64,000 nt of DNA. Origin: an uncultured Candidatus Saccharibacteria bacterium (GTDB taxonomy: Bacteria; Patescibacteriota; Minisyncoccia; Phycocordibacterales; UBA6065). The first letter of the stretch is position 1. Every line of letters begins with the position of its first letter. The translations under genes were made by a program, and so were the position numbers. Location: the NCBI GenBank assembly GCA_964368835.1, contig CAYJCZ010000004.1, forward strand, positions 59,385-123,384, given 5' to 3'. Below the pieces are notes generated by a model, which was not told the origin of the DNA, did not search any database, and saw only the letters and a program-made list of their open reading frames with translations. Of this stretch, positions 11,749 through 61,100 are shown piece by piece.

Positions 11749-12600
11749 TTATTTACACACGTTCGCTATTTCGTCTAAAAGCATTGGTATTTTTGCTTTT
11801 TCTATACCAAACGCAGGAAGATCGGCCTCTCTTTCAGCAATATGCTTGCAAAGTATAAGTCCTGCATCAAGAAGAGATCGCTTTTCAACTGGTGAAAGCG
11901 AAAGCAGTGATGTGAGCGGGTGAAGCTTTGATTCATTTATAAGATCCTCCAGATTTCCTTTGTCGGGATAATTCCAACCAATGAGTGAAAGGCCCTGGCA
12001 TTCGGCATACCTGATTGCGTGATCAGTGAATTTTGTATTTGTAAATAATTGAAAGGTGCTTATTTTACGCATTTTGCCGCCATATTCATGAGAACCGTTC
12101 TTTAGGTCATCAAAACGTGCCCTGATATACAGAGCTACCTTGAGATCTGACTTTAGGCCAGGTTCATTATGAAATTTTGCTTCTACGATCGACAATTTAT
12201 CACCCTTCCATGCCACAACATCAACCTCATGCTCAACACACTTACCTTGAATGATTTGTCCTGTGACTGCCTCATACCCTTTTGCCTTAAAAATTTCTGC
12301 AATAAGTTTCTCAAAAGGAAAACCACTTGGACCGAGATCAGCGATCGCTCGTTTCATCGAATAGCGCGCGGCAACTGGTTTTGCGTCTTGTCTAAGTATT
12401 TCAAAAGCATGCTTGTAAATTTCAGACGTAGGAATACCATTTACAAGCTCTTTCTCAATATGCTCGCAAATTCGATTAGCTTCAGCATCTGTCGCACCAG
12501 CCTTATGTAATGAAAGAATAAGCTTTGCCGGCACAAAAGTCTCCTGCTCGCCGGTTGATTTGAGTACAAGTATTTGTGACATGGTCACATTATAACCCAA
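11749..12600 (-). CDS. ATP-cone domain fused to Mrr-like restriction endonuclease domain
   Basis: N-terminal ILVLKSTGEQETFVPAKLILSLHKAG is ATP-cone-like (as in NrdR/NrdA N-termini). Central FEKLIAEIFKAKGYEAVTGQ...VDVVAWKGDKLSIVEAK matches the restriction endonuclease (Mrr_cat) D-(D/E)xK core. Confidence 0.6.
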   Translation of the reverse strand: MGYNVTMSQILVLKSTGEQETFVPAKLILSLHKAGATDAEANRICEHIEKELVNGIPTSEIYKHAFEILRQDAKPVAARYSMKRAIADLGPSGFPFEKLIAEIFKAKGYEAVTGQIIQGKCVEHEVDVVAWKGDKLSIVEAKFHNEPGLKSDLKVALYIRARFDDLKNGSHEYGGKMRKISTFQLFTNTKFTDHAIRYAECQGLSLIGWNYPDKGNLEDLINESKLHPLTSLLSLSPVEKRSLLDAGLILCKHIAEREADLPAFGIEKAKIPMLLDEIANVCK

Positions 12601-14722: not shown

Positions 14723-15985
14723 TTAAACTGGAAGATTTGAAGGAGCCTCTGCTCGCTTTGATGGAATACGATCGATGGTTGGTGTACCAGCAACTGAACC
14801 AGGGAAATGGAAAATAGTTGCAAACTCCTCGGTGTTTAGAACCATCGGCTTGCTGTAATAAGGCGCAAGGAAATATCCTCGTCGTCGATACGCCTTGAGA
14901 ACCTCCCTTGCAACATGCTCCTTATCTTTATCCTTCTTTATCTTAGCCGCGAGCCATGTGTCTCCATTAGGGGCAAAGCCGTTGAGATACTCAGAGCTGT
15001 AGTGCTTGAACATTGCAGGAACTCCTCCTATTCCAAACGTAGGATCAAATGCTTCTGGTTTTGTAGCTAGAAACACCACTCGGATACCAACATCAAAAGA
15101 TGGCTTGGACACACTGCGGCCAATTGCTTCAACGACTTCTTCTTCAGCTCTTGATAAGACATATTTAATCGGCTTGCCGTCATCATCTGTATCACCAACT
15201 TTTGTTTTAGAATCTCGTTTCAAGAAATCCTCGCTGATAATTTTTTCTGCATCCGCCTTCCAATTATCCTCTTCCTTAGCAAAAAGATAATGATGCTTTT
15301 TATCCTTCTTATGTGCACGAACAATCATCTGAATCCAGATGTGCTGGTCTTTGCTTGCTGATCCCATCCATTCAAGCCCTGGAACCATTGGATCAATCTT
15401 AAACTCTTCTTTTGGATCCTTATCCAACCCGTAATCAATGTATGTTTTTATTGGATACGGATCTGGCTTTGTAAGCTTTAGATCAACCGCCCACATCTTC
15501 ATGGTTTTTGGATCAAAAAACACTTTATCGGCATAATCCTCACGCTCATGGATTTCGATTCCAGGATATTGCGAATACAAGGCTGCCATGAGATTTTTCT
15601 TGCGCCTTTCTTCGGTACGAATCAAAAATTTAATCTTTCCCTCTTCAGAAATAAGTTCAAAGGAATATTCTGGTCGAGATTCTCCCTCCCAATACATTTT
15701 CTTCATGCCGCCATCTGACGTGTTGTGAATTGTATTAAGCACAAGCTCCATCGCTTTGGGCGATTTTACAGTTTCTCGAGGAAGCTTAATTTCGAGAAGA
15801 GTTTTTTTAATTTTTACAGCCCAGGCAGTTCGTACATACGTAAGCCATTTTTCCCAAGCAAATTCCACAATAACAATAGGGACCCAAATAACAGCAAGAA
15901 AAAGAGTCCAACGTAGCGTCTCCGGTAAGACTACATGAAGCACAAAATAAGGAAGATCAGCTGCTATAAGTGAGAAAATATTCAC
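14723..15985 (-). CDS. Hypothetical membrane protein (2 N-terminal TM helices, large soluble domain)
   Basis: ORF of 420 aa with no motif recognised. Confidence 0.5.
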   Translation of the reverse strand: MNIFSLIAADLPYFVLHVVLPETLRWTLFLAVIWVPIVIVEFAWEKWLTYVRTAWAVKIKKTLLEIKLPRETVKSPKAMELVLNTIHNTSDGGMKKMYWEGESRPEYSFELISEEGKIKFLIRTEERRKKNLMAALYSQYPGIEIHEREDYADKVFFDPKTMKMWAVDLKLTKPDPYPIKTYIDYGLDKDPKEEFKIDPMVPGLEWMGSASKDQHIWIQMIVRAHKKDKKHHYLFAKEEDNWKADAEKIISEDFLKRDSKTKVGDTDDDGKPIKYVLSRAEEEVVEAIGRSVSKPSFDVGIRVVFLATKPEAFDPTFGIGGVPAMFKHYSSEYLNGFAPNGDTWLAAKIKKDKDKEHVAREVLKAYRRRGYFLAPYYSKPMVLNTEEFATIFHFPGSVAGTPTIDRIPSKRAEAPSNLPV

Positions 15986-16053: not shown

Positions 16054-17082
16054 TTACGCCATCGAATATCGTCCTTCTTTGTCTTTTTTGAAATACTTTG
16101 GGTTCTGAAGATTAACGAGGATAGTGTTTTCTTTCACATATCGCTCCTTCATTACCTTGTCGATAACATCCTTTTTGGTGAGTGGACCGTTCTTTTCAAT
16201 AACCTTCTTGATAACGTCCTTAACAACACCTGACATGTAACCCCATTCTGAGAGTGCGTAGAGACCTCGTCCAACGAGAACAAATCGAGGATCCTTGATA
16301 AGTTCATTGTGAGTTGTTGCAACATGAGCCTTCTTGTTGAACATCTTCTCAATCTGCTTTGCTACTTCGCGGAAATGGATTGGAGATCCATGTTTTCGAA
16401 TAACGAGGAAAGCGTAATCTCGCATACCCTTTGCCTTGATGTTTGGAGAATGTGAGACGCCCCATTCACCGAGAGGATTCTTTCCAACTTTCTTTGAAAG
16501 AGAAAGCCATCGCTTCAAAATCTCATCATTTCGATAGGTATCATTGAGACCTTCGATATGATTAAGGAACGTATCAATCATCTCTGATTCAGGAATGATA
16601 TCGTCGTCCTTGAGGTTCTTATAAAGCTTCTTGAGAGCATCTTCAACCTTCTTTGAGGTTGCCTCGTCTACATGCCACCTATGCTTGAAATGATCGTCTT
16701 CCTTCTGCCATTTGAAAGCTCGTCCGAGTACAAGGAGGAAGTAAATGTGATTCTGAATAGACGGGTCTTTTGAGACACTATCGAGAAGATCTTCCTCTGC
16801 CATAACACCTCCCATCTGAGTCATCATCTCTTCGAGTTCCTTGAAAGCAGCATTCTGGGCCTCATATTCCTTAGATTTCTGAATATTTGAAATAGCGTAA
16901 TTTTCGATCTGTCGGACACGCTCACGAGTGATGCCATAGGTCTTACCAATAGCTTCAAGAGTCATCTTGTTTGGTTCCTTTCCAAGGCCATAGCGCTTGG
17001 TAATAACCTCCTGAGCACGGTCAGGCAAGCTCTTGAGAAGAGCCTTAACAACCTGTTTTGGTTTGAGCGTAAGCGTAGTCAT
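16054..17082 (-). CDS. Sigma-70 region-4-like HTH fused to C-terminal HARE-HTH domain; putative transcription factor
   Basis: N-terminal LEAIGKTYGITRERVRQIENYAISNIQ is sigma70_r4-like. C-terminal HFREVAKQIE...FVLVGRGLYALSEWGY is a HARE-HTH signature as in RNAP delta. Start set to M26 (ATG 17082). Confidence 0.6.
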   Translation of the reverse strand: MTTLTLKPKQVVKALLKSLPDRAQEVITKRYGLGKEPNKMTLEAIGKTYGITRERVRQIENYAISNIQKSKEYEAQNAAFKELEEMMTQMGGVMAEEDLLDSVSKDPSIQNHIYFLLVLGRAFKWQKEDDHFKHRWHVDEATSKKVEDALKKLYKNLKDDDIIPESEMIDTFLNHIEGLNDTYRNDEILKRWLSLSKKVGKNPLGEWGVSHSPNIKAKGMRDYAFLVIRKHGSPIHFREVAKQIEKMFNKKAHVATTHNELIKDPRFVLVGRGLYALSEWGYMSGVVKDVIKKVIEKNGPLTKKDVIDKVMKERYVKENTILVNLQNPKYFKKDKEGRYSMA

Positions 17083-17205
17083 AATATAGCGCGCGTTCCT
17101 TAAATTTCTTATAAATATCGTTGAAATCAAATTATCACTGGTTTCGCAGTAAGTCAAGCTTATGTAATATTACCACACTTGTCAAGACTTGTCCTAGCTA
17201 CCCTT

Positions 17206-20200
17206 TTAGTCAGTCACAATTGAAACTAATTTTCCGGGAACAACGATAATTTTTTGAGGTTTTTTATCCCCAACCCACTTAATAATTTCGTCTAGTTTGA
17301 GTGCGAGAGCCTGTAATTCATCTTTTGTAGCTTCCCTTGGTGCTTCGAATGATGCTCTCATTTTCCCATTTACCTGAACGACGATTTTAACATGATCATC
17401 AACTGTTTTTGTCATGTCTGCAGTCGGCCACGCAGAAAGATGAATCGAAGTTTTGTTTCCAAGATTGCGCCACAACTCTTCGGTCATATGTGGAGCAAAT
17501 GGTGCAAGCATTTTAAGGAGTGATGCATACGCTGTATCTGATATTTCTGCACATGAATCCATTTCGTTTGAAAGGATCATAAGTGCGCTTATAGCTGTGT
17601 TATGACGAAGTGATGCTATATCCTCGGTAACCTTTACTATCGTCTTATTGAGAGCGATTTCAGCCGCTTTAGGCATGACTGCGCCATTCTTTACCTTCTC
17701 GCTAAGCTTCCATACGCGTTCAAGGAATCTGCGAGAACCCATAATACTCGAAGTTGACCATGCGATAGCTTGATCAAAAGGTCCCATAAACATTTCGTAC
17801 ACTCGCATCGTGTCGGCACCGTATGTATGTGCAATCTCATCTGGATTTACAACATTACCAAAGCGCTTGGACATTTTTCGCCCATCTTCACCCATGATAA
17901 GTCCCACCGACTGAAGCTTTTTGAAAGGCTCAAGTGTTGTAACAACACCGATGTCATATAGAAACTTGTGCCAGAAGCGCGCATAGATGAGATGTCGTGT
18001 CGCGTGTTCTGCACCGCCAACATAAAAGTCTACCTGGTTCCAATATTTTTCTTTTTTCGGATCTACGAGTGATTTGGAATTTGCTGGATCCATGTATCGC
18101 AAGTAGTACCACGAAGAACCTGCCCATTGAGGCATGGTATTCGTTTCTCTTTTCACAATTTTCGCTGACTTTCCCTTTCCGATTTTTACATCTACCCATT
18201 TTTCAATGGAAGCAAGCGGAGATTCTCCTGTTCCTGTTGGTTCGTATGACTTAACCTTTGGCAAAACTACTGGCAAATCTTCATCTGCAACTGGAATAAT
18301 TTCATACGCGACTTCTGACTCTATTTTTTTCCAGAGAACATCAAACTCTTTACCGTTCTTTGAATCAAAGTGACCAAACCCATCCCACGCTTCAATGTTC
18401 CATGATGAAGGAAGATCTTCGTGAGTATCTGACGGAATAACTACATCGTCTTTTGATCTCACGAGCGTTACTTTATTAACCAACTTAGAAACTTTATTGT
18501 AATTGATCGGCGCTTCCCAGAATTTTCTAAGTGCAGGTACATCAGACTCAGATCCATCCATTTCTTCTACTATCTTCCAATGCTTTTCATCTCGAGGTTT
18601 ACCAATCGCGCTCGCAATAAGGAAAAGGTTTCCAATATTGATTCCGGTTTTCTCAATTAATCTCAATGCGGCGTTTGAACCCAAACTATGACCCACAATG
18701 ATGTCATCCGGTCCAAAGTCTTTTACATGCGGTTCAAGTTCCTTCATCCACGACTCAACTGTGGGGTGAAATGATGTAGAAATTGTAGGATTAAAGACCT
18801 CAACCCCTCTGTCTTCGAGTGCTTTTTTAAGCTTCTTAAACCAATGGCCATTACCATTACCCTCAAATCCATGGATAAGAAGAGCTTTTTTAGCTTTAAG
18901 ACCCCGCAAAATAGGAAAAGGTTCGCCCCAATACCTCTGGCGTGAGAACACCCAGTCTTTGAGTTTGTATTTAACAACCCAATTTCCACCTACAGAATCA
19001 GTAATCTTTTTCTGTGCATCAATCGAGTTCATACCAGAAAACTTTCCTGAATCAACCAATTGTCCGGAACCTGTGTAGCATTGATCTTTATCAGCTGATT
19101 CTGATTTTTCACTAGGACTTATGACGCGACGAATATTTTGATTAAATTTTTGGGCAAACTGAAAATCTCTTTCGTCATGAGCGGGAACAGCCATGACAGC
19201 ACCGGTTCCATATTCAGCCAAAACATAATCAGCTACAAACACCGGCACTTCTTCGTTGTTTGCCGGATTAATAGCAAACACACCTTCAAGTCTTACTCCA
19301 GATTTGTCCTTTTTGGCATCTGTCCGCTCGATCTCAGTCATTGCTCGAGCATGAGCAACATAGGCTATAACTTCTGAGTGATTCTTTAGACTTTCTTTTT
19401 TCTTAAGTATTTCTGTGACAAACGAATGCTCTGGCGCGATAACTAGGTACGTAACACCAAACAAAGTATCAGGACGAGTAGTAAACACTTTTAACTTTTC
19501 ATTTCTTCCTTTGAATGCAAATGTGAGTTCAACTCCTTCGCTACGACCAATCCAATTTCTTTGTGCCTCTTTTATAGACTCTGGCCAATTGAGCGCATCG
19601 AGATCAGTCAAAAGCCTATCTGCGTACTTTGTAATGTTAAGCACCCATTGCCTCATCGGCTTCTTTTCAACTGCAGTTCCGCAGCGCTCACACTTACCAT
19701 CCTCCACATCTTCGTTAGCTAGACCAGTCTTACACGAAGGACACCAATTAATTGGTTCAAATGACTCATACGCTAGACCTTTTTCCAAAAGCTTAAGAAA
19801 GATCCACTGAGTCCACTTGTAAAACTTGGGATCGGTAGTATTTACTTCGCGCGACCAATCATAATCAAAGCCAAGAATTTCAAGCTGCTTTTTATAGCGC
19901 TCTACATTCTTTGCGACAGCGATTGATGGATTAGTCTTGGTTTTAATTGCATAGTTTTCAGCCGGCAATCCAAACGCATCAAAGCCCATTGGGTGAAGCA
20001 CATTAAAGCCCTGCATTCTCTTTTGGCGAGAAACAATATCGGTAGCTATGTAGCCTTTAGGATGCCCTACATGCAAACCTTCGCCCGAAGGATAAGGAAA
20101 CATATCGAGAATATAAAACTTTGGTTTCTCTATTGAGTCACCTGTTTTATAAATCTTCTTTTTCTCCCACTCCTTCTGCCACTTTTTTTCTATTTTTGAA

Positions 20201-20217
20201 TGGTCGTAGCGAGTCAT
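17206..20217 (-). CDS. leuS: Leucyl-tRNA synthetase with inserted YdeN/RBBP9-type alpha/beta serine-hydrolase domain
   Basis: PYPSGEGLHVGHPKGY (HIGH), KMSKRFGNVV (KMSKS), editing motifs TTRPDTLFG and AVPAHDERDFQFA, Zn module CPSCK...CERCG. An insert of about 195 aa after RQRYWGEPFPILRG contains LLIHGFEGNGNGHWF, IIVGHSLGSN (GxSxG), LFLIASAIG, VTLVRSKDDVVIPS and WDGFGHFDSKNG. Confidence 0.9.
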   Translation of the reverse strand: MTRYDHSKIEKKWQKEWEKKKIYKTGDSIEKPKFYILDMFPYPSGEGLHVGHPKGYIATDIVSRQKRMQGFNVLHPMGFDAFGLPAENYAIKTKTNPSIAVAKNVERYKKQLEILGFDYDWSREVNTTDPKFYKWTQWIFLKLLEKGLAYESFEPINWCPSCKTGLANEDVEDGKCERCGTAVEKKPMRQWVLNITKYADRLLTDLDALNWPESIKEAQRNWIGRSEGVELTFAFKGRNEKLKVFTTRPDTLFGVTYLVIAPEHSFVTEILKKKESLKNHSEVIAYVAHARAMTEIERTDAKKDKSGVRLEGVFAINPANNEEVPVFVADYVLAEYGTGAVMAVPAHDERDFQFAQKFNQNIRRVISPSEKSESADKDQCYTGSGQLVDSGKFSGMNSIDAQKKITDSVGGNWVVKYKLKDWVFSRQRYWGEPFPILRGLKAKKALLIHGFEGNGNGHWFKKLKKALEDRGVEVFNPTISTSFHPTVESWMKELEPHVKDFGPDDIIVGHSLGSNAALRLIEKTGINIGNLFLIASAIGKPRDEKHWKIVEEMDGSESDVPALRKFWEAPINYNKVSKLVNKVTLVRSKDDVVIPSDTHEDLPSSWNIEAWDGFGHFDSKNGKEFDVLWKKIESEVAYEIIPVADEDLPVVLPKVKSYEPTGTGESPLASIEKWVDVKIGKGKSAKIVKRETNTMPQWAGSSWYYLRYMDPANSKSLVDPKKEKYWNQVDFYVGGAEHATRHLIYARFWHKFLYDIGVVTTLEPFKKLQSVGLIMGEDGRKMSKRFGNVVNPDEIAHTYGADTMRVYEMFMGPFDQAIAWSTSSIMGSRRFLERVWKLSEKVKNGAVMPKAAEIALNKTIVKVTEDIASLRHNTAISALMILSNEMDSCAEISDTAYASLLKMLAPFAPHMTEELWRNLGNKTSIHLSAWPTADMTKTVDDHVKIVVQVNGKMRASFEAPREATKDELQALALKLDEIIKWVGDKKPQKIIVVPGKLVSIVTD

Positions 20218-30525: not shown

Positions 30526-30610
30526 CTGTTTATTATATCAAACTCTAGGCCTTATATTGCACACTCAGATAGAAAAAGAGACCAGCTTTCGCCGATCTCT
30601 TTTTTTGTTG

Positions 30611-30683
30611 TGGACCCTACAGGACTCGAACCTGCCACCCCCTCATTGCAAATGAGGTGCTCTACCAGATGAGCTAAGGGCCC
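30611..30683 (-). tRNA. tRNA-Ala (anticodon UGC)
   Basis: Minus strand GGGCCCTTAGCTCATCTGGTAGAGCACCTCATTTGCAATGAGGGGGTGGCAGGTTCGAGTCCTGTAGGGTCCA folds as a cloverleaf. The anticodon loop TTTGCAA gives anticodon TGC. A G3:U70 pair in the acceptor stem and A73 discriminator are present. CCA is not encoded. Confidence 0.9.
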
Positions 30684-46432: not shown

Positions 46433-49400
46433 TTATTCTTCTCGAGTTTCTTCCTGCTTTGGAGCCATTTCCTCAATCATCTTGTGCTTTGGGCTTCCCT
46501 TGTAACCTGTACCAGCTGGGATAAGACGACCAATGATAACGTTTTCCTTAAGACCCTGAAGTCGGTCTTCAGTGCCTCGGATAGCTGCTGAGATGAAGAT
46601 TCGTGTTGTGTGCTGGAACGATGCCGCTGAAAGGAATGACTGTCGTGAGAGTGACACTTCTGTAATACCCATCACAACTGATTCTGTAGTTGCTGAATCC
46701 TTACCAAGGAGTTTCTGCTTGTCATTTTCCTCTGTGATATCAAAGATATCTGCAACATCATCGATTGAGAATCGAGAATCACCGCTACCGGTAACGCGTC
46801 GGCGAGAGAACATTTGCTTAACAACAATCTCGATGTGCTTTCGTGACACAGTTTCACCCTGGAGTTCGTAAATCTTACCGATTTCTCGAATGATGTAATC
46901 CATAGCCTTCTCCTTTCCAGCGTATTCGAAGATTTCATCTACGTCTGCTGAACCGTCTGTAAGAAGCTGACCCTTTACTACCTTGTCACCAGCTTTAACA
47001 AGAGCCATTCGCTTGTAATTGAATACATATTCAACTTCACCTGATTTCTTGCTCTTACCCTTATCTTCAAGTTCTGGAATAACAATGATGGTCTTTTCCT
47101 TTCCACCATCCTTAACTGAAGTAACAGTACCGCTTACGGTTGCAACAACAGCTGGATTCTTTGGTCGTCGCTTTTCAAAGACTTCTTCAACTCGAGGAAG
47201 ACCCTGAGTGATGTCTCCACCAACTGACGCTGTTCCTCCGGCGTGGAAGGTACGCATAGTGAGCTGTGTACCTGGTTCACCGATAGCCTGAGCTGCAACA
47301 GTTCCTACAGCTTCACCGATATCAATGAGGTGGTTTTTACCAAGATCAATTCCGTAACACTGCTGACATACTCCGTGAAGAGTTTTACATGAGAGTGGTG
47401 ATCGAACTTTGATTTCAGTTGCACCTGCGTTCTCAATAAATGCAGCATCCTGCTTTGAAAGAAGTGCACCTTTCTTAAAGATTACAGTTCCCTTTGCATC
47501 CTTAACATCATCTGCAAGTACTCGACCGCGAATATTCTTTGCGATTGAAACTTCGATTCCTGATGCGCTTTCCTTCTTGATAACGATTGATTCCTTGGTA
47601 CCGCAGTCATCCTCAGTAATCATAACGTCCTGAGCCACATCGAAGAGTCGTCGTGTGAGGTAACCTGCACGCGCTGTGTTAAGAGCTGTGTCGGTCAAAC
47701 CTTTTCGAGCTCCGTGAGTAGTAATGAAGTACTCGATCGGTGTAAGACCTTCCTTCATACCAGAGATAATTGGGAATTCGATAGTCTCTCCGGCAGTGTT
47801 GGTAATAAGTCCTTTCATTCCCACCATTTGAGTAATGTTTCCGATAGAACCTCGAGCTCCTGATCGCACCATGTCTGTTACAGGACCCTGTGGATCAAGT
47901 GAGTCTGGAATAAGCTTTTCGATGTCTGACTTAGCCTTGTGCCAAATCTCAACATTCTTTCGAATTCGCTCATCATCTGAAAGGAGACCGTCGTTAAACT
48001 GTTCGTTAACTGTTTCAGATTCTACCTTTGCTTTGTTGATAACATTTCCCTTTCCTTCTGGAGTCTTTACGTCATCAATACCCCACGTAATACCTGAGTA
48101 TGTCGTGTAATTGAATCCGAACTTCTTGATGTCGTTTAGAATAAGCGGAACCTTATCAATCGAGTATCGAATTATAAGATCGTCCATGATTCCTGACATA
48201 GTCTTTCGTTCGATTTCCTTGTTGATGAAAGGATAGTCGATAGGCAAAATGTTGTTGAAGAGAATTCGTCCAACAGTTGTGTCGAATACCTTGCCCTTAT
48301 ATTCAGCAAACTTCTCTGTATTTGGTGCAAGAACCTTAACTGAAGCTCGGTATGATACTTCGTTGAAGTCTGATGCGAGCACCGCAGCCTCTGGTGATTC
48401 GAAAATCTTACCTTCACCCTTTTCAGCTTTTACAGATTTGGTCATCCAATATACACCCAAGATAATGTCGAGCATCTTGTTTGTAAGAGTAAGATCACCT
48501 GAACCTGGCTTCAAGATGTTTTTGTCTGATGCCATGATCTCCTTTGCTTCTTTCTGCGCTTCTGGAGAAAGTGGAACGTGAACGGCCATCTGGTCTCCGT
48601 CGAAGTCTGCGTTGAAAGCAGAACATACGAGTGGGTGAACCTGAATAGCGTTACCTTCGATGAGTTTTGGTCGGAAAGCCTGAATACCAAGTCGGTGGAG
48701 AGTAGGAGCTCGGTTTAGGAGCACGTACTTGCCCTCGATTACATCTTCAAGAATCGCCCAAACTTCTGGAATTCCGTCTTCGATAAGTCGTGATGCGCCT
48801 CGAATGTTATACGCAAGTTCTCGCTTGAGAAGTTCTGAAATAACAAATGGTTTGAAAAGCTCAAGTGCCATGTGCTTTGGAAGTCCACACTGGTCAAGCG
48901 CGAGATCTGGACCCACAACGATAACCGATCGTCCTGAGTAGTCTACTCGCTTACCAAGAAGGTTTCCTCGGAGAAGTCCTCGCTTACCCTTAAGGTTATC
49001 AGCAAGTGACTTGAGTGCTCGCTTTGATGCAAGAGATCCTGCTGCTGTTGTCGAGTTTCCGTGTCGGATTGAGTTGTCGATAAGAGCGTCCACAGCTTCC
49101 TGCAAGATTCGCTTTTCGTTTCGAAGAATCACGTCAGGGGCCATGATTTCCTTGAGCTTTGCGAGTCGGTTGTTTCGGTTGATAACTCGTCGATAGAGGT
49201 CGTTTACGTCTGAAGTCGCGTATCGGCCACCATCAAGAGGAACCATAGGTCTTAGTGCTGGTGGAATAACAGGGATTCGAGAAAGGAACATCCACTCTGG
49301 GCGAATGTTTGATTTGATCATCGCTCGAACAACTGAAAGTCGGCGGTTCATCTTATCCTTTTCGAGGCTGTTTGCCTTTTCAAGAGCTGCCGCTACTGAT

Positions 49401-50113
49401 ACTTCAAGCTTCTTGAGGTCGAGTGCCTTACAAATATTGTAAATTGCTTCTGCACCGATACCCGCTTCGAAGAGCGTTGAATATTTCATCGCATACTTGC
49501 CGTATTCAACTTCATCAAGAACAACACCTACCTGGATAGCATCGATCTCCTTCTTTGCACCCTGGTACATTGCCTTGAGAGCTTCTTTTGTCTTGTCGTC
49601 TTCAACTGTCTTGATCTTTGATTTAAATTCAGACTCAAGATCCTTCATGATTTCTGCACGTGCAGCTTCATGTACAGCAGTAACGATATATCCAGCAAAG
49701 TAGATAACCTTTTCAAGGTCAGCTGTTGTCATGCCCAAGATAATGCCGAGTCGTGATGGCATTGAACGGAGGAACCAGATGTGTGATACCGGCGTTGCAA
49801 GCTCGATATGACCCATTCGCTCACGTCGTACGATTGATCGTGTGATTTCAACTCCACATTTTTCACAGACAATTCCCTTGTAGCGAATACCTCGATATTT
49901 ACCACAGTAACATTCGTAATCCTTGTCTGGACCGAATATCTTCTCATCGAAAAGACCGTTCTTTTCAGAGCGCTGTGTTCGATAGTTAATTGTTTCCGGC
50001 TTTGTTACTTCACCGAATGACCATTCCTTGATTCGTTCAGGAGATGCGAGGCGAAGCGCAACGACATCGAAGTCTATGGTTTCCGCTGTCTTATTTTTTG
50101 GTGTATATGCCAT
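46433..50113 (-). CDS. rpoC: DNA-directed RNA polymerase subunit beta'
   Basis: NADFDGDQMAVHVPLS catalytic loop, zinc finger CYCGKYRGIRYKGIVCEKCG; 1226 aa. Confidence 0.95.
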   Translation of the reverse strand: MAYTPKNKTAETIDFDVVALRLASPERIKEWSFGEVTKPETINYRTQRSEKNGLFDEKIFGPDKDYECYCGKYRGIRYKGIVCEKCGVEITRSIVRRERMGHIELATPVSHIWFLRSMPSRLGIILGMTTADLEKVIYFAGYIVTAVHEAARAEIMKDLESEFKSKIKTVEDDKTKEALKAMYQGAKKEIDAIQVGVVLDEVEYGKYAMKYSTLFEAGIGAEAIYNICKALDLKKLEVSVAAALEKANSLEKDKMNRRLSVVRAMIKSNIRPEWMFLSRIPVIPPALRPMVPLDGGRYATSDVNDLYRRVINRNNRLAKLKEIMAPDVILRNEKRILQEAVDALIDNSIRHGNSTTAAGSLASKRALKSLADNLKGKRGLLRGNLLGKRVDYSGRSVIVVGPDLALDQCGLPKHMALELFKPFVISELLKRELAYNIRGASRLIEDGIPEVWAILEDVIEGKYVLLNRAPTLHRLGIQAFRPKLIEGNAIQVHPLVCSAFNADFDGDQMAVHVPLSPEAQKEAKEIMASDKNILKPGSGDLTLTNKMLDIILGVYWMTKSVKAEKGEGKIFESPEAAVLASDFNEVSYRASVKVLAPNTEKFAEYKGKVFDTTVGRILFNNILPIDYPFINKEIERKTMSGIMDDLIIRYSIDKVPLILNDIKKFGFNYTTYSGITWGIDDVKTPEGKGNVINKAKVESETVNEQFNDGLLSDDERIRKNVEIWHKAKSDIEKLIPDSLDPQGPVTDMVRSGARGSIGNITQMVGMKGLITNTAGETIEFPIISGMKEGLTPIEYFITTHGARKGLTDTALNTARAGYLTRRLFDVAQDVMITEDDCGTKESIVIKKESASGIEVSIAKNIRGRVLADDVKDAKGTVIFKKGALLSKQDAAFIENAGATEIKVRSPLSCKTLHGVCQQCYGIDLGKNHLIDIGEAVGTVAAQAIGEPGTQLTMRTFHAGGTASVGGDITQGLPRVEEVFEKRRPKNPAVVATVSGTVTSVKDGGKEKTIIVIPELEDKGKSKKSGEVEYVFNYKRMALVKAGDKVVKGQLLTDGSADVDEIFEYAGKEKAMDYIIREIGKIYELQGETVSRKHIEIVVKQMFSRRRVTGSGDSRFSIDDVADIFDITEENDKQKLLGKDSATTESVVMGITEVSLSRQSFLSAASFQHTTRIFISAAIRGTEDRLQGLKENVIIGRLIPAGTGYKGSPKHKMIEEMAPKQEETREE

Positions 50114-50142: not shown

Positions 50143-53100
50143 TTATTTCTTCTTGCTAATATCTTTTCCGTCCTTCCTCAGTTCGACGTCGAGTGCAAGA
50201 CCCCTGAGAGAGTTGAGTAATACATGGAATGATGCCGGAATGTTTGGCTGCTGAAGCTGTTCACCCTTAACGATCGAGTCGAATGCAGCTGAGCGTCCCT
50301 GAATGTCGTCTGATTTGATTGTAAGGATTTCTCGCAATGTATGAGCCACTCCGTGACCGAGAAGTGCCCAGACTTCCATTTCTCCGAATCGCTGACCTCC
50401 TCCCTGTGCCTTTCCTCCGAGTGGCTGCTGAGTGATGAGAGAGTAAGGTCCGATTGATCGCATGTGGATCTTGTCCTCCACCATGTGGTGAAGCTTCAAG
50501 ATGTACATGTAACCCACTGAAATATCCTGCTGGAATTTCTCACCAGTTCGTCCATCGTAAAGTGGAATCTTTCCGTTTTCAGGAAGACCTGCTTTTTTGA
50601 GTTCTTGCTTGATTTCAACATCAGTTGCTCCTGCAAATGGCGGAACAATAGCCTGGTAGTTGAGAGTGTTTGCTGCAAGTCCGAGGTGAAGTTCAAGAAT
50701 CTGTCCGAGGTTCATACGTGATGGCACGCCGAGCGGTGTCAAAATAACATCGATCGGAGTTCCGTCAGCTGAATATGGCATATCTTCTTCAGGGAGAATC
50801 TTTGAGATAACTCCTTTGTTTCCGTGTCGTCCTGCAAGCTTGTCACCTACAGATACAGTTCGAAGCTGTGCGACTTCAACGTGAATTCGCTTGATAATAC
50901 CTGATTCGAGCTTATCGCCCTTCTCTCGTGAGAATACTTTGACTGAAATGATTCGGCCTTTCTTGCCTCCTTCCATTCGCTTTGATGTATCTTTCACATC
51001 GCGCGCCTTTTCACCGAAGATAGACCTTAGAAGTCGCTCTTCTGGAGTAAGCTGAGTTTCACCCTTTGGAGTAATTTTACCAACGAGAATGTCTCCAGAT
51101 CGTACTTCTGCACCGATTCGAATGATACCGTCTTCGTCGAGGTTTCGAAGCTTCTGCTCACCAACGTTTGGAATGTCATGAGTTGTTACTTCAGGTCCGA
51201 GCTTTGTATCTCGCACGTTAACAACGAACTCTTCGATGTGAATCGAGGTGAACTTTGAGTTCTTTACGACTCGCTCAGAGATGATGATTGCGTCTTCGTA
51301 GTTAGCACCTGACCATGACATAAATGCCACGAGCATGTTCTGACCGAGAGCAATCTGTCCACCGTCTGATGATGATGCGTCAACAAGAACCTGTCCCTTT
51401 GTTACTTTCTCGTTAAGAGAAACAACCGGTCGCTGATGATATGCGGTAAATCCGTTTGTTCGCTGGAATGAAACGAGTTTATAGGTAGTTTCCTTTCCTT
51501 TCGCATTCTTAAATACAACTTTATTTGCATCTACAGCTGAAATAACGCCGTCTTCTGGAGCAAGAACGATTCGTCCTGTGTATTCTGCTGCTTTTGCCTC
51601 AATACCTGTCGCAACAAGTGGAGCTTCAGGAATAATACAAGGCGTAGCCTGCTTCTGCATGTTCGAACCCATGAGTGCTCGGTTTGCGTCATCGTGGTTT
51701 AGGAACGGGATCATGTTTGTCGCAATCGAGAACGCCTGGTTCGTCGATACGTCAATGAAGTCCACATCCTCTCGCTTTACGATGGTTGGGCTGCCGTTTT
51801 GTCGCACTTCTACAACATCTTCAGAAATCCTGCCGTCTTTGTCATACAAAGTTGCAGCGTGAGCAATTCGATAGCTTTCTTCTTCAAGAGCGTTCAAGTA
51901 CACAATTTCTTTTGTGACTTTTCCTCCCTTTACCTTTGCATACGGAGTTTCGATCATTCCGAAGTCATTGAGACGAGCGTAGGTAGATAGACGAAGAATA
52001 AGACCAATGTTTGGACCTTCTGGGGTGTGAATAGGGCAAAGTCGTCCGTAGTGAGATGGGTGAACGTCTCGAACTTCAAAGCCTGCTCGTTCTCGAGTAA
52101 GACCTCCGGGACCGAGTGCTGAAAGCGTTCGAAGGTGTTCAAGCTCAGTAAGGATGTTTTCCTGCTGCATGAACTGTGAGAGCTGGTTTGTCGTAAAGAA
52201 TTCCTTGAGTCGTGCCTGGAGCGGTCGTGGAGAAACGAATGTCAAAGGCTGAGTCGTATCTGGTTCGATAGTCGACATCCGGTCCTGAATATTTCGCTTC
52301 ATCTGTGAAAGACCAACACGAAGCTTCTGCTGCATGAGCTCACCTACATACCTCACACGTCGTGATCCGAGGTGATCGATATCGTCTTCTGTAGCGTCAA
52401 GCTTGTTGTTCAAGTGAACGATGTGACCAATGATAGTTGCAAGGTCATCAGCAGTGATTGTCTTCTGCTCAAGATCCTTTTCATCCATTGATTTGCCGAA
52501 TCGCTTGTTAAAGCGGAATCGTCCTACATTTGAGAGATCATAGCGATCCTTGTGGAAAAGGGTACCAATAAACTCACGTGCATTGTCTGCAGTAGCAAGA
52601 TCTCCGTCTCGAAGTCGCTTGTGAATCTCTATATATGCGTCATTAACAGTCTTCGCTGTGTCCTTTGCAAGGCTTGCTGCAACTACCTTCATAGCAGTCT
52701 CATCGCCCTTGAAGTACGCAAGGATTTTTTCGTCCGTATCTGCTCCGAGAGCTCGGAGGAGTGCGGTAACCATAAACTTTCGCTTTCGGTCGATACGAGC
52801 ATATATCGTGCCGTCATTGTCAGTCTCAATTTCAAGCCATACGCCTCGTGCAGGGATCACTTTGGCGCCGAATACTGTCTTGCCTTTCACTTCATCAGAC
52901 GTAAAGAATACGCCGAAAGATCGCGCAAGCTGGGGAACAATTACGCGTTCAATACCATTGATGATGAAAGTACCGTGAGATGTCATCAAAGGAAAATCAG
53001 CAAGGAAAATTTCCTGCTCCTTTTCTGAGTTAAACATCTTGTTACGAAGCTTTATACGAACCTTGAGGGGAGCTTCGTATGAAAGCTTATTGTCTTTTGC

Positions 53101-53322
53101 ATAGTGCTCGTCGTACTTTGCTTCTGAGAGCTCAAATCCTGTGAATGAAAGTTCGAATTTCTTGTCCGAATAGTCCTTAATCGGAGAAAATTCCTGGAAA
53201 AGGTCTGAAAGACCCTTCTCAATGAGCCACTTGAACGATTCCGTCTGTGCCTCCACGAGATTTGGAATGTCCGAAAGGGCCTCCTTGAATCGTCCGAAAT
53301 ACTTTTGTTCCCTTTTTATCAT
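50143..53322 (-). CDS. rpoB: DNA-directed RNA polymerase subunit beta
   Basis: Conserved beta-subunit blocks (GRHGNKGVISKILPEEDMPY; LGGKAQGGGQRFGEMEVWAL); compact 1059 aa form. Confidence 0.95.
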   Translation of the reverse strand: MIKREQKYFGRFKEALSDIPNLVEAQTESFKWLIEKGLSDLFQEFSPIKDYSDKKFELSFTGFELSEAKYDEHYAKDNKLSYEAPLKVRIKLRNKMFNSEKEQEIFLADFPLMTSHGTFIINGIERVIVPQLARSFGVFFTSDEVKGKTVFGAKVIPARGVWLEIETDNDGTIYARIDRKRKFMVTALLRALGADTDEKILAYFKGDETAMKVVAASLAKDTAKTVNDAYIEIHKRLRDGDLATADNAREFIGTLFHKDRYDLSNVGRFRFNKRFGKSMDEKDLEQKTITADDLATIIGHIVHLNNKLDATEDDIDHLGSRRVRYVGELMQQKLRVGLSQMKRNIQDRMSTIEPDTTQPLTFVSPRPLQARLKEFFTTNQLSQFMQQENILTELEHLRTLSALGPGGLTRERAGFEVRDVHPSHYGRLCPIHTPEGPNIGLILRLSTYARLNDFGMIETPYAKVKGGKVTKEIVYLNALEEESYRIAHAATLYDKDGRISEDVVEVRQNGSPTIVKREDVDFIDVSTNQAFSIATNMIPFLNHDDANRALMGSNMQKQATPCIIPEAPLVATGIEAKAAEYTGRIVLAPEDGVISAVDANKVVFKNAKGKETTYKLVSFQRTNGFTAYHQRPVVSLNEKVTKGQVLVDASSSDGGQIALGQNMLVAFMSWSGANYEDAIIISERVVKNSKFTSIHIEEFVVNVRDTKLGPEVTTHDIPNVGEQKLRNLDEDGIIRIGAEVRSGDILVGKITPKGETQLTPEERLLRSIFGEKARDVKDTSKRMEGGKKGRIISVKVFSREKGDKLESGIIKRIHVEVAQLRTVSVGDKLAGRHGNKGVISKILPEEDMPYSADGTPIDVILTPLGVPSRMNLGQILELHLGLAANTLNYQAIVPPFAGATDVEIKQELKKAGLPENGKIPLYDGRTGEKFQQDISVGYMYILKLHHMVEDKIHMRSIGPYSLITQQPLGGKAQGGGQRFGEMEVWALLGHGVAHTLREILTIKSDDIQGRSAAFDSIVKGEQLQQPNIPASFHVLLNSLRGLALDVELRKDGKDISKKK

Positions 53323-58108: not shown

Positions 58109-61100
58109 CTATCCACCAGATGTTTCTGAGGGAGTGCTTTCTGTTGATTCTGAACTTGTTGATTCGGTTGGAGCTGGCTCTTGAGGGGCTTCTTGGGGTG
58201 CTTCTTCAATAACTGGTGGAGTTGGCTCTGGCTCAGTAACTACCACTTCTTCATCCTGCGGTGCAGGAGGCAATATTGGATCCTCGATCACCTGTCCTGT
58301 TGAGGTTGCGGTATCCGTTGATGGGCCGGATCCTCCGTCGTTCGTTGTTGTCGCTGTAGATGTGCTCGTTTCTGTGACTGGCGGAATCACAAGTCCGTCC
58401 TCAAACGGTAATACTGTCGGTGTGGTGGTTGGTACAACTGACGGAGTCGTTGTCGCGTTGTCTGTGACTACTACATCCGTTACGGGTACTTCAACACCAT
58501 CAATTCTTGAGGTAAAGAGCTTTGAGCCCTTAACCATGAGTGCCATCCAGTTGAAAGTCATGTCTTCTGGCGCTGGCTTGTTGAGGACAATACTGAATCC
58601 ACCTGTTGTCTTTCTGCTTACAAGGAACGCAATTCCGTTTTGGAATATCGCTTCTTCGAGCGCCTCACTTGTGCTTGCGTTATCGAGTGCAATCGTTGCA
58701 GAGACAATCGGAGTCTCGAGATATTCTCTGTCGAAGACAATTTCTACTCGTTTGTCTCCCTTCCTTATAAGTGCCGCACCCGCTGTGTCTGTTGTGAAGT
58801 ATGGTCGACCGAAGAATGAGACGTCACCGAGGATTTGTATTGTTGTGCTTGCAGATGCAATCGTATCAACAATGAGTCCTGATGATGTTGTTGTTCCGTA
58901 CACAGTGAGTCGCTTTGTCTCAAACGCATCTGATGTAAGAGTACCTGCGAACAATCCATTACCCTTGTTGTCGAATGAAACCGCGAGGAATGATTCTGTT
59001 GTAGTTCCCATTACATCAACCGTAGTCGTACCTGCTTCTGTTGTAGTTGCGAATGAATCAATAACTGACGCTGTCTGCTTTGTACCGTACATTCGGAAGA
59101 AGCCAGATTCTGATGGTGTGAGGTCAATAGATGTTGCCTTGAGTGTTTGTGTCGTTAGATCAGTCGTGGTCAAGGTCTTTGCTGTCATTGTCATACCTTC
59201 TACAGCGTCAGATCGTAGAATTCGAGAGATGATTGTCGGGCTGATCACTTCTGTGATGAAGCTTCCTCGGTCTGCAAAGAGTTCTGATCGAGATGAAGCC
59301 TCCATGCCTCGATTTCCCTTCAAGTCTTCAAGGTAAGAGAGGATTTCACCATCTCGGCCTGTAAGTGTTGATGTCGCTGTTGTAGTTGTAGCTGTAGTTG
59401 TTGTGCTTATTTCCTCTGCTGCAACTCCGTATGGCTGTGAAGGAATTCGATTCTCCTTGTACGCAGTGAGATTTTCATCAACAGAGCTACCAAGATAATC
59501 GACGAGGTTTACGAACATCATGATCGTACCGCATTTTCGTCCAGCAACCGCGACACCCGCCTCAGGACAATCTTCAAGTGAATTTACATCGAGTGACTCA
59601 AGTGCCTTACCGATTACATGACCAGCCACTGTTGCCTTCATTGCATGACCTGGTACTGATGATGGAGCAAGATAGTCGCCTTGTCGGATGATGCCGTTTT
59701 CTGTAGAGACCTTTACTGGTACTCGTCCGATAAGTGCGATTGGATATGAATCCTCAGTGTATGCACCAGCAACGAATCCAGGATCTGTAGATACAACTCC
59801 GATTGCATTTGGCTGATATCTATAGACAGTCTTCTGTACGCCGTGATTGTTTTGCGGATCAATTGCTACAACCTCGCCCGGCTTAAGTTCAACCTGTGAT
59901 CGGTATCGTTCTGCAAGGTCGGCTCCAGATGAGTTGAATGTTGCACCTTCTGCGGCGTAGACGTTTCCGTTTGAAGAAATTCGAAGCATGGTAAGTCCAT
60001 CAGCCTGGAGGTTTACAAAGTCGACGTCCTTTGTTACGGATACTTCTGTAAGTACAGGACTCGCAAGTTCTCGCTTTGTCTGCACTGGTGATGCACCGTT
60101 GTACCACACATCTGTGTATACACCTGTATATGATGGGAATTCACGCTTGAAGTTAAAGGTTACTTGCAACCACACATCGCCCACACTTGGATTAATTTTT
60201 TGTCCTGGTCCTGAGATTGGTCGGGCAACTGCATTTTGCAATCCCGCCTGAGTTGAAGCTGTTCTAACCTCAGCTGATACTCCCTTGAATGCCGGAGTAA
60301 CTTTCCAGTTAAGAACTGAGTTTTCATCAAGATCAGTAATATTAATCTGTTCAGATCGATAAATACCTGATGCTACCCATCCTGCATCAACCTTCGAAGT
60401 CATTGTTGACGACGCTGTAGAAGATGCCGCACCTGTAATGAGGAAGAATTTACCATCAGGGCGCTGGAACGCAATGGATCCTGGACCCACGCCCATGTAC
60501 GCAGTGTTCGGTCCTAAGCCGGTCTTGTTATACGCCATAGTTGACGTTGCGATCGTCGTAGGACCATAAGGACCTCCCGCAAGGAACACACCCTGTTGAC
60601 CTCCAAATGGAATGTCTTCAGTTACACCCTGTTCAACACCTGCCTGTTCGAGATAAATATTAGATTTCGTAGTTGAAGCACCTCCAATCATCACAAGCCA
60701 TGACCCGTTTGCCATCGGCATCGCGAAGCTTCCTTCTGGTTTTGTTTGAATACCATTTCCAGGAGCTACACCAGGGATTGTCGGACCAACGATCATTCTG
60801 TTTGTATATGGGTTGTATATGTTTGTTGTGAAGAGCGCATTACATGTCGTAACGGTTGCACCTCCCTTGTAAATCACATACATACCGTCAGCTCGCTGGA
60901 AAGCAAATGCACCTGGACCAGTACCGTTTGTCATGACGGTGTTAGGGTTTGTCTTGAACTGCATCGCTACAGGGTCAAAGAGTGCTGTTGCCGTCTGGAG
61001 GGTACATGTATCGTTAGACGTACCTGGAATGACCAAGAAGGTTCCATCAGGTCGTGGCAATGCAAGTGATCCCTGTCCAATGGTAACTGTGCTTGGTGGA

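Follow-up and report, generated by a model that had tools for sequence, protein, structure and literature searches.

The leucyl-tRNA synthetase (LeuRS) gene leuS in the 64-kb stretch of contig CAYJCZ010000004.1 analyzed here (the whole of which we call the window) encodes a bacterial-type enzyme with a second enzyme domain inserted into its catalytic body. Judged from sequence profiles and a structural model, the insert is a complete PF06821-family (YdeN/RBBP9-type) Ser-Asp-His hydrolase domain, with its catalytic triad in the canonical order. The architecture is recurrent across Patescibacteria, occurring in at least 51 species-level genomes, and is not a one-off. As to its role, our preference, held with somewhat less than even confidence, is for an accessory esterase or amidase that would be functionally tied to the synthetase and would clear small soluble molecules made or handled there.

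The insert is 197 aa long and in frame (aa 440–636; window positions 18310–18900, minus strand). A first-pass annotation of the window, made from the sequence alone, had described an in-frame insert of about 195 aa at 18313–18903, at a point where canonical LeuRSs have only a short loop; the location stands, and the loop is the turn of a hairpin in canonical enzymes, but the exact ends are those given here. The same annotation had taken the insert for a serine hydrolase of the PF06821 type, in agreement with the Pfam match, the match to YdeN, and the predicted fold. Specifically, Pfam PF06821 (Ser_hydrolase) matches aa 446–622 (bit score 55.3, gathering score 22; E = 1e-14; profile positions 2–159 of 172), and a search with the insert alone finds B. 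subtilis YdeN (1UXO; E = 1.8e-11). PF06821 had also been annotated beforehand in all related inserts. When the insert is modeled alone, the predicted local distance difference test score (pLDDT) is 93.2 and the predicted template modeling score (pTM) is 0.91; within the model of the full-length protein, its pLDDT is 92–96. The seven best Foldseek matches of the insert model in the PDB are chains of human RBBP9 (2qs9/7oex) and YdeN (1uxo), with template modeling (TM) scores of 0.71–0.82, and the order of secondary-structure elements in the model is that of a minimal alpha/beta hydrolase.

The motifs quoted in the first-pass annotation are all present where it had put them: LLIHGFEGNGNGHWF at aa 446–460, GHSLG at aa 509–513, VRSKDDVVIP at aa 586–595, and WDGFGHF at aa 611–617. 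The Ser, Asp, and His that it had named are conserved, and S511, D591, and H616 map onto S75, D138, and H165 of human RBBP9 (hhalign with a profile of 15 inserts; probability 98.4 per cent). The RBBP9 residue numbers in this comparison match those given in PMC8866121. Both among 35 inserts at the same position as that of the window (site 436 in Table 1) and in an alignment of 32 rows with identities as low as 22 per cent, H449-G450, S511, G513, and H616 are invariant. D591 is conserved in at least 90 per cent of the sequences, and the acid is Asp or Glu in every site-436 insert; in the model, Asp590 and Asp591 both lie just past strand 580–588. An oxyanion-hole role for the HG motif is presumed from what is generally known of alpha/beta hydrolases. 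Because the triad and the HG motif are conserved across related inserts, the domain is apparently under selection as an enzyme and is predicted to be active. In RBBP9, Glu108 together with Ser76 and Tyr99 anchors the free alpha-amine of the substrate. RBBP9 Glu108 aligns with the Glu of an RDEKHW loop in the insert, in a part of the alignment that is of low confidence and where the acidic residue shifts among inserts, and the position of RBBP9 Ser76 is occupied by Leu in the window. The W...SD..L..FW cap motif is not specific to LeuRS-embedded copies.

Alignment with other LeuRSs, which the first-pass annotation had proposed as a way to delimit the insert, gives a sharp answer. Residues 1–437 of the window protein correspond to residues 1–437 of Thermus thermophilus LeuRS, and residues from 639 onward to those from 443 onward; the additional ~200 residues thus fall precisely between positions 437 and 443 of the Thermus enzyme. 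The LeuRS motifs RQRYWGEPFPILRG (aa 426–439) and AYEIIPVADEDLPVVLPK (aa 637–654) stand directly before and after the insert. The insert takes the place of the turn of a beta-hairpin, where Thermus LeuRS has its first ZN2 zinc knuckle, and in the full-length model linkers of only ~3 and ~2 residues join the hydrolase domain to this carrier hairpin. In many relatives HCxxC directly precedes the insert and CPxC follows further on; the Thermus sequence here is HCEAC, and the two motifs correspond to the pair of knuckles that make up the second zinc site of the Thermus enzyme (ZN2, with four Cys ligands). The G+C fraction of the insert (0.39–0.41) is the same as that of the rest of leuS, and no direct or inverted repeats were found flanking it. 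An Rfam scan of the insert region gave no RNA match, and any short open reading frame (ORF) in another frame there overlaps that of LeuRS, for which support is strong.

A survey of related genomes, also proposed in the first-pass annotation, bears on its worry that the gene might be an assembly chimera. In a scan of GTDB with one genome per species, 62 loci were found, and in 51 of them the same insertion is seen, with the hydrolase inside the LeuRS ORF directly after RQRYWG. The names on the GTDB records are Paceibacterota, Parcubacteria, Moranii-, Magasanikii-, Buchanan- and Uhrbacteria, and 'Patescibacteria group', some of these bin names being evidently loose. A full-protein search of NCBI, JGI, ENA, and Logan assemblies recovered an identical sequence as well as full-length PF06821-bearing proteins of 55–76 per cent identity, one of which JGI names 'leucyl-tRNA synthetase/predicted alpha/beta hydrolase family esterase'. 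Because the same architecture recurs across Patescibacteria, an assembly chimera is effectively excluded. More generally, the suspicion that the insert is an artefact or a dead domain (misassembled, derived from an intein or mobile element, or decayed to a purely structural role) can draw on the window protein's own cluster, which has one member, from one contig. Against it stand the identical in-frame architecture in 51 independent species-level genomes and several archives, the uniform composition and lack of flanking repeats across the insert, the absence of intein or Hint Pfam matches in the window LeuRS, and the conservation of the triad and HG motif down to ~22 per cent identity, and we regard it as scarcely credible.

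Four specific candidates for the nature of the insert were rejected. The junctions, G-LKAKK and SEV-AYE, have neither the Cys/Ser start nor the His-Asn end of an intein, and there is no Hint or homing-endonuclease domain. A mobile element was set aside for want of flanking direct or inverted repeats and of any such Pfam match, and a pseudoenzyme because the catalytic residues are conserved across related inserts. A known LeuRS module, whether the leucine-specific domain or ZN2, does not fit an insert that matches alpha/beta-hydrolase families only.

The host enzyme has what is expected of a bacterial LeuRS: a TIGR00396 match, the HIGH and KMSKS signatures, and a CP1 domain with its Thr-rich motif and conserved Asp. 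The match to TIGR00396 (leuS_bact) has a score of 981.8 bits (cut-off, 548.4) and comes in two stretches separated by the insert, and Pfam recognizes the class I catalytic domain, PF13603, and the anticodon-binding domain in addition to PF06821. The closest PDB sequence is that of T. thermophilus LeuRS (E = 8e-199). An AlphaFold2 model of the full-length protein, made with 61 relatives as input, has a mean pLDDT of 87.4 and a pTM of 0.80, and the PDB structure that it resembles most is that of aminoacylation-state E. coli LeuRS (5omw_A; TM = 0.83). The CP1 editing domain is present besides the insert, as the first-pass annotation had stated, with PF13603 and its motifs intact: TTRPDT (aa 246–251) and H347/D348/R350/D351 (HDERD) are invariant or nearly so in relatives with or without inserts. 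Because these motifs are conserved, the insert does not appear to compensate for a lost editing site.

The ZN1 cysteines C159, C176, and C179 are invariant in the family of the window LeuRS, and C162 is nearly so. All four ZN2 cysteines are gone; many relatives keep HCxxC and CPxC, and the nearest relatives of the window LeuRS also lack these cysteines. The leucine-specific domain and the ZN2 knuckles are found in many, not all, bacterial LeuRSs and are not strictly defining. The leucine-specific domain (~58 aa, normally located before KMSKS) is absent from the window LeuRS, because residues 776 to 782 align with Thermus residues 579 to 638. The sequence at its position, GEDGRKMSKR, resembles the GKDG stub of M. 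mobile LeuRS; both that enzyme and AgnB2 are likewise without the domain.

By core sequence, the nearest LeuRS is an insert-free protein, P0007 (86.9 per cent core identity), encoded at L065:8001-10415 with 78 per cent nucleotide identity to the window leuS. The two loci share their neighbors, namely the genes for G6PD, a flavodoxin-like protein, YchF, DUF5671, leuS, a sigma-r4/HARE-HTH protein, YceG, and MnmA. The window leuS is the ordinary chromosomal leuS of a Paceibacteria-like organism of the Patescibacteria (the candidate phyla radiation, CPR). At the insertion point, P0007 reads PLLF-DNGK-PIPV and the window reads PILRG-[197 aa]-IIPV. Since the syntenic orthologue has the DNGK turn at this point, the hydrolase domain, by comparison of the two sequences, appears to stand in cleanly for a 4-residue turn, and its gain or loss appears to have been clean and fairly recent. 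Because close orthologues lack it, the domain would be dispensable for aminoacylation.

The window LeuRS belongs to a wider pattern, which we examined in an alignment of its 120 nearest LeuRSs, with insertion sites numbered on P0007. There are five recurrent sites (Table 1), and all recognized inserts are small hydrolases of the PF06821, NUDIX, Ham1/ITPase, or HAD families. NUDIX, Ham1/ITPase, and HAD are classical nucleotide and metabolite 'house-cleaning' families. Among the 120 proteins, 43 have only a NUDIX domain at site 368, 31 are insert-free, 13 have only the hydrolase at site 436, and 13 have both, with several rarer combinations besides. PF06821 occurs at three sites (238, 368, and 436) and also in tandem copies; it is the only insert of the window LeuRS itself. 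Larger relatives combine Ham1/ITPase, NUDIX, and PF06821 (1558 aa), NUDIX, PF06821, and HAD (1581 aa), or HAD at site 368 and PF06821, so that a LeuRS has up to three recognized inserts and a length of up to 1581 aa (LeuRSs with NUDIX, Ham1/ITPase, or HAD domains as well as PF06821 are found among L013:3535-8208, L048:411-5153, L014:4027-7662, and L038:4006-7698, and P0009, P0018, P0025, P0095, P0106, and P0121). Of the 66 NUDIX copies at site 368, 57 retain an intact NUDIX box. Because the NUDIX modules of P0018 (site 208) and P0009 (site 368) are 50 per cent identical (E = 6e-55), their sequences suggest either the transfer of a single module family from one site to the other or two separate captures of it. 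In P0023, a 123-aa insert without a Pfam match (aa ~583–705) replaces the hydrolase at the window's exact site. NCBIfam gave no specific equivalog for the window insert or for the NUDIX, Ham1, or HAD partners; one HAD partner gives a weak, sub-threshold PpaX-like match.

Two simple distance trees, neither with support values, were built. In the first, a neighbor-joining tree based on the LeuRS core, proteins of different architecture are thoroughly intermingled. The second, a rough tree based on the hydrolase domain, places the LeuRS-embedded copies in at least five clusters, with free-standing proteins of ~190 aa between them. The scatter of embedded copies over at least five clusters among free-standing proteins suggests that the domain was captured several times independently. 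The inserts diverge faster than the core (mean distance of 0.59 vs 0.37), and the correlation between core and insert distances was uninformative as a test of vertical inheritance (Pearson 0.33; Spearman ~0).

Table 1. Features of the window leuS and recurrent insertion sites in related LeuRSs.
Feature	Window position	Strand	Basis or remarks
leuS coding sequence, bacterial-type leucyl-tRNA synthetase with insert	17206..20217	-	1003 aa, single uninterrupted ORF
Inserted PF06821 (YdeN/RBBP9-type) alpha/beta serine hydrolase domain, aa 440-636	18310..18900	-	Pfam, YdeN match, model, hhalign
His449-Gly450, HG motif, presumed oxyanion-hole turn after first strand	18868..18873	-	invariant in 32 aligned sequences; codons verified
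Ser511, predicted nucleophile of GHSLG elbow, between strand 506-510 and helix 512-524	18685..18687	-	invariant; aligns with RBBP9 Ser75; model topology
Asp591, predicted catalytic acid (second Asp of SKDD), after strand 580-588	18445..18447	-	conservation; aligns with RBBP9 Asp138
His616, predicted catalytic base in GHF, after last strand 607-611	18370..18372	-	invariant; aligns with RBBP9 His165
Outgoing strand of carrier beta-hairpin, aa 436-440 ILRGL	18898..18912	-	DSSP strand in model; by the Thermus alignment, equivalent to the strand preceding the first ZN2 knuckle
Return strand of carrier hairpin, aa 638-642 EIIPV, followed by DLPVVLPK	18292..18306	-	DSSP strand; aligns with Thermus 443-447 GVVPV
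HIGH signature of synthetic site (HVGH, aa 49-52)	20062..20073	-	motif position; H49/V50/G51/H52 invariant in 61-sequence alignment
CP1 editing domain, aa 220-408, apparently intact	18994..19560	-	PF13603, E = 1.1e-66
KMSKS signature (KMSKR, aa 781-785)	17863..17877	-	motif position
Anticodon-binding domain, aa 855-964	17326..17655	-	PF08264, E = 1.9e-21
Insertion site 208, just before CP1			NUDIX
Insertion site 238, early in CP1			PF06821
Insertion site 368, CP1 loop			NUDIX
Insertion site 436, the window's own site			PF06821
Insertion site 487, after hairpin			HAD

How specific is the tie to LeuRS? An exhaustive search of representatives with the insert gave 1174 matches, of which the best 150 were examined (an earlier word-index search with the insert alone had returned one free-standing protein only). 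Among these best 150, 27 proteins are at least 300 aa long, and 23 of the 27 are LeuRSs or fragments of them, 21 recognized by motifs and two more by family models. The other four are a fragment of a valyl-tRNA synthetase (ValRS), a PBP1 fusion, a GNAT fusion, and one protein without any other recognized domain. The ValRS-like ORF (P0254; L066:247-2538; 763 aa, N-terminal part missing, on a 3.2-kb contig) has two tandem PF06821 domains after LDTWFSS; because a search found no relatives of this fragment, the case stays an anecdote. At another locus (L069), a free-standing PF06821 hydrolase (P0136; 1721-2314) lies 40 nt upstream of an insert-free leuS for an 841-aa protein (2355-4880) on the same strand. 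Even so, without selection for association with LeuRS it is difficult to see how the domain would have come to occupy three attachment sites in several lineages of its own.

Within the wider hydrolase family, RBBP9 cleaves off N-terminal amino acids, for which a free alpha-amine is necessary (PMC8866121). It is cited in the text of PMC7730578 (as Shenoy 2020) as a valacyclovir-activating enzyme, valacyclovir being a nucleoside analogue esterified with valine. ML-005 acts as an esterase on short-chain substrates (PMC6119806), and the valacyclovirase BPHL, which is of a different family, is called a homocysteine thiolactonase in the title of PMC4198189. We propose that the embedded hydrolase is a predicted active esterase or amidase that would be accessory to LeuRS, with small alpha-aminoacyl esters or thioesters, released aminoacyl esters, or aminoacyl-adenylate-type by-products as its candidate substrates. 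It would work beside the nucleotide 'house-cleaning' domains of related LeuRSs and would not replace CP1 editing. By analogy, homocysteine thiolactone may be named as a concrete candidate substrate, because class Ia synthetases make it as a by-product on rejecting homocysteine and BPHL is titled as its thiolactonase. This clean-up esterase is the explanation that we tentatively favor because of the family chemistry, the house-cleaning partners, the several attachment positions, the intact CP1, the insert-free nearest orthologue, and the repeated use of LeuRS as host. A bolder and, to us, doubtful version would make CPR LeuRS, and possibly ValRS, a multi-enzyme platform, in which the embedded hydrolase would be a third quality-control site applying Ser-Asp-His chemistry in situ to mischarged tRNA-Leu, non-cognate aminoacyl-AMP, or homocysteine thiolactone, while the NUDIX, Ham1, and HAD domains would clear nucleotide by-products.

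Several observations count against the clean-up esterase. The enrichment of LeuRSs among the multi-domain matches is partly expected, because the query was itself a LeuRS insert. Of 13 free-standing loci, one adjoins leuS, and the other 12, which were inspected, have no synthetase nearby. The counterpart of Glu108, the alpha-amine anchor of RBBP9, is only loosely conserved in the insert, and the homocysteine-thiolactone idea is purely an argument by analogy. Finally, the conserved hairpin and the linkers, which are short and look rigid in the model, would also fit a positioned, tRNA-directed site.

In order of likelihood, the alternatives are an enzyme that merely rides on LeuRS, a positioned third editing site, a built-in antidote, and the artefact or dead domain weighed above. 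LeuRS might be just a tolerant and constitutively expressed scaffold in tiny genomes, with the hydrolase doing a job unrelated to leucylation, such as general ester or nucleotide-pool clean-up. Such a passenger would fit the presence of four unrelated hydrolase families in surface loops in almost any combination, the mosaic of presence and absence among close relatives, the faster evolution of inserts than of the LeuRS core, the lack of a synthetase near most free-standing homologs, and the existence of PBP1 and GNAT fusions. It leaves unexplained, however, why LeuRS was the host repeatedly, through independent captures at several sites, and why internal loops were preferred over simple terminal fusion, and both the free-standing copy next to leuS and the ValRS case point to synthetases specifically. 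We consider this explanation unlikely, though it is the foremost of the rivals.

The first-pass annotation had suggested a second proofreading or deacylating activity as one possible role. A third, cis-acting proofreading site would take the 3' end of mis-acylated tRNA-Leu, or a non-cognate aminoacyl-AMP still at the enzyme, and cleave the aminoacyl ester through a Ser-acyl intermediate, as an extra sieve beside CP1. Members of the family accept alpha-aminoacyl amides and esters whose amine is free, the valyl ester of a nucleoside analogue among them; the linkers, of at most three residues, sit on a conserved hairpin of the catalytic body; and the other PF06821 sites (238 and 368) are within CP1 itself. 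The site-436 inserts are also less acidic than free-standing relatives (mean net charge of -1.8 vs -6.1), which as a proxy for tRNA binding is a mild shift only. Such a site is nevertheless unlikely, and less likely than an accessory clean-up esterase: the CP1 editing motifs are fully conserved, so there is nothing to compensate for; the domain is found at three attachment points and in tandem copies; it is absent from the nearest orthologue; and its NUDIX, Ham1, and HAD partners have no known tRNA-editing role. To our knowledge, no editing factor has an alpha/beta hydrolase fold, and the insert has no homology to the known editing folds (CP1, INS/YbaK, AlaX/ThrRS-N2, and DTD), matching only alpha/beta-hydrolase families. 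We think it quite improbable that the hydrolase and its NUDIX and HAD partners are an antidote that destroys natural aminoacyl-nucleotide mimics aimed at LeuRS at the site of attack. The patchy, fast-evolving, and repeatedly acquired distribution does resemble that of conflict systems, and LeuRS is the target of the natural Trojan-horse antibiotic agrocin 84/TM84, against which dedicated resistant LeuRS variants exist (PMC5059758). The partner families, however, are classical metabolite-sanitizing enzymes; the neighborhood is plainly one of housekeeping genes, with no defense or toxin genes seen, although the PADLOC library was not searched.

Nearly all long ORFs of the window are on the minus strand, among them rpoB (50143-53322), rpoC (46433-50113), dnaG, uvrA, and uvrB. 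Directly downstream of leuS are genes for the protein with sigma-70 region 4 and HARE-HTH domains (16054-17157, minus strand) and for a 420-aa protein (14723-15985, minus strand) that had no Pfam match in our scan and is annotated as DUF8128 in L065; both are conserved beside leuS in that locus. A 283-aa protein with an ATP-cone and a Mrr-type restriction-endonuclease domain (11749-12600, minus strand) has the same position in L065. The alanyl-tRNA synthetase of the window (6032-7810, minus strand) is only 592 aa long, compared to the usual ~870 aa, and apparently has no C-Ala domain; its catalytic match ends at profile position 439 of 552, and the tRNA_SAD motif is at its extreme C-terminus. 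The window also contains a 1957-aa ORF without a Pfam match at E <= 1e-5 (58109-63982, minus strand) and only one tRNA gene (Ala-TGC, 30610-30683).

Few enzymes are as highly conserved as the aminoacyl-tRNA synthetases, and in bacteria it is rare for one of them to acquire a new catalytic domain. The synthetase and the hydrolase family were each already known, and annotation pipelines label both halves; what is new is their recurrent internal arrangement. We found no description of hydrolase inserts in CPR LeuRSs in the open-access literature, including the AARS Online paper. The arrangement provides a strong guilt-by-association lead to the bacterial function of the poorly understood YdeN/RBBP9 family, makes the function of this orphan hydrolase family directly testable, and is likely to surprise synthetase specialists. 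It points to as yet unrecognized chemistry, for quality control or metabolite repair, that would be linked to tRNA charging in minimal genomes, and it shows which LeuRS surface loops tolerate insertion of a whole domain, which is useful for engineering.

Compared to the LeuRSs of T. thermophilus (1H3N/2BYT) and E. coli (4AQ7/4ARC), the window enzyme has the same core, ZN1 cysteines, CP1, and anticodon-binding and C-terminal domains. It differs in having a 197-aa hydrolase where the Thermus enzyme has the HCEAC zinc knuckle and the E. coli enzyme a short hairpin, and, relative to Thermus, in lacking the cysteines of both ZN2 knuckles and the leucine-specific domain. The NCBIfam model NF040702, 'isoleucine--tRNA ligase, N-acetyltransferase domain-containing', which matches weakly here, by its name likewise describes a class Ia synthetase with an extra enzyme domain; that domain is of a different family, GNAT. 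With known editing modules and trans-editing factors (CP1 of Leu/Ile/ValRS, ProRS INS/YbaK, AlaX, and DTD), the insert may share chemistry, in the form of synthetase-linked hydrolysis of aminoacyl esters, whereas its fold is unrelated, it has a Ser-Asp-His triad, and CP1 is present besides.

The partner inserts belong to the same families as the house-cleaning hydrolases (NUDIX/MutT, Ham1/RdgB ITPase, and HAD phosphatases), in keeping with a sanitizing role; those enzymes, however, are normally free-standing, and PF06821 is not a recognized member of the group. The closest likeness in fold is to free-standing PF06821 proteins (YdeN, 1UXO; RBBP9, 2QS9/7OEX; and ML-005), with which the insert shares a size of ~190 aa, the lack of a large lid, the HG motif, the GHSxG elbow, the SxDD acid, and the GHF histidine. 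Relative to RBBP9, the insert does not clearly conserve the alpha-amine anchor and has an extra helical segment of ~17 residues, which some free-standing bacterial relatives share. What sets the window domain apart from all of these proteins is that it is found inside another enzyme and not as a separate protein.

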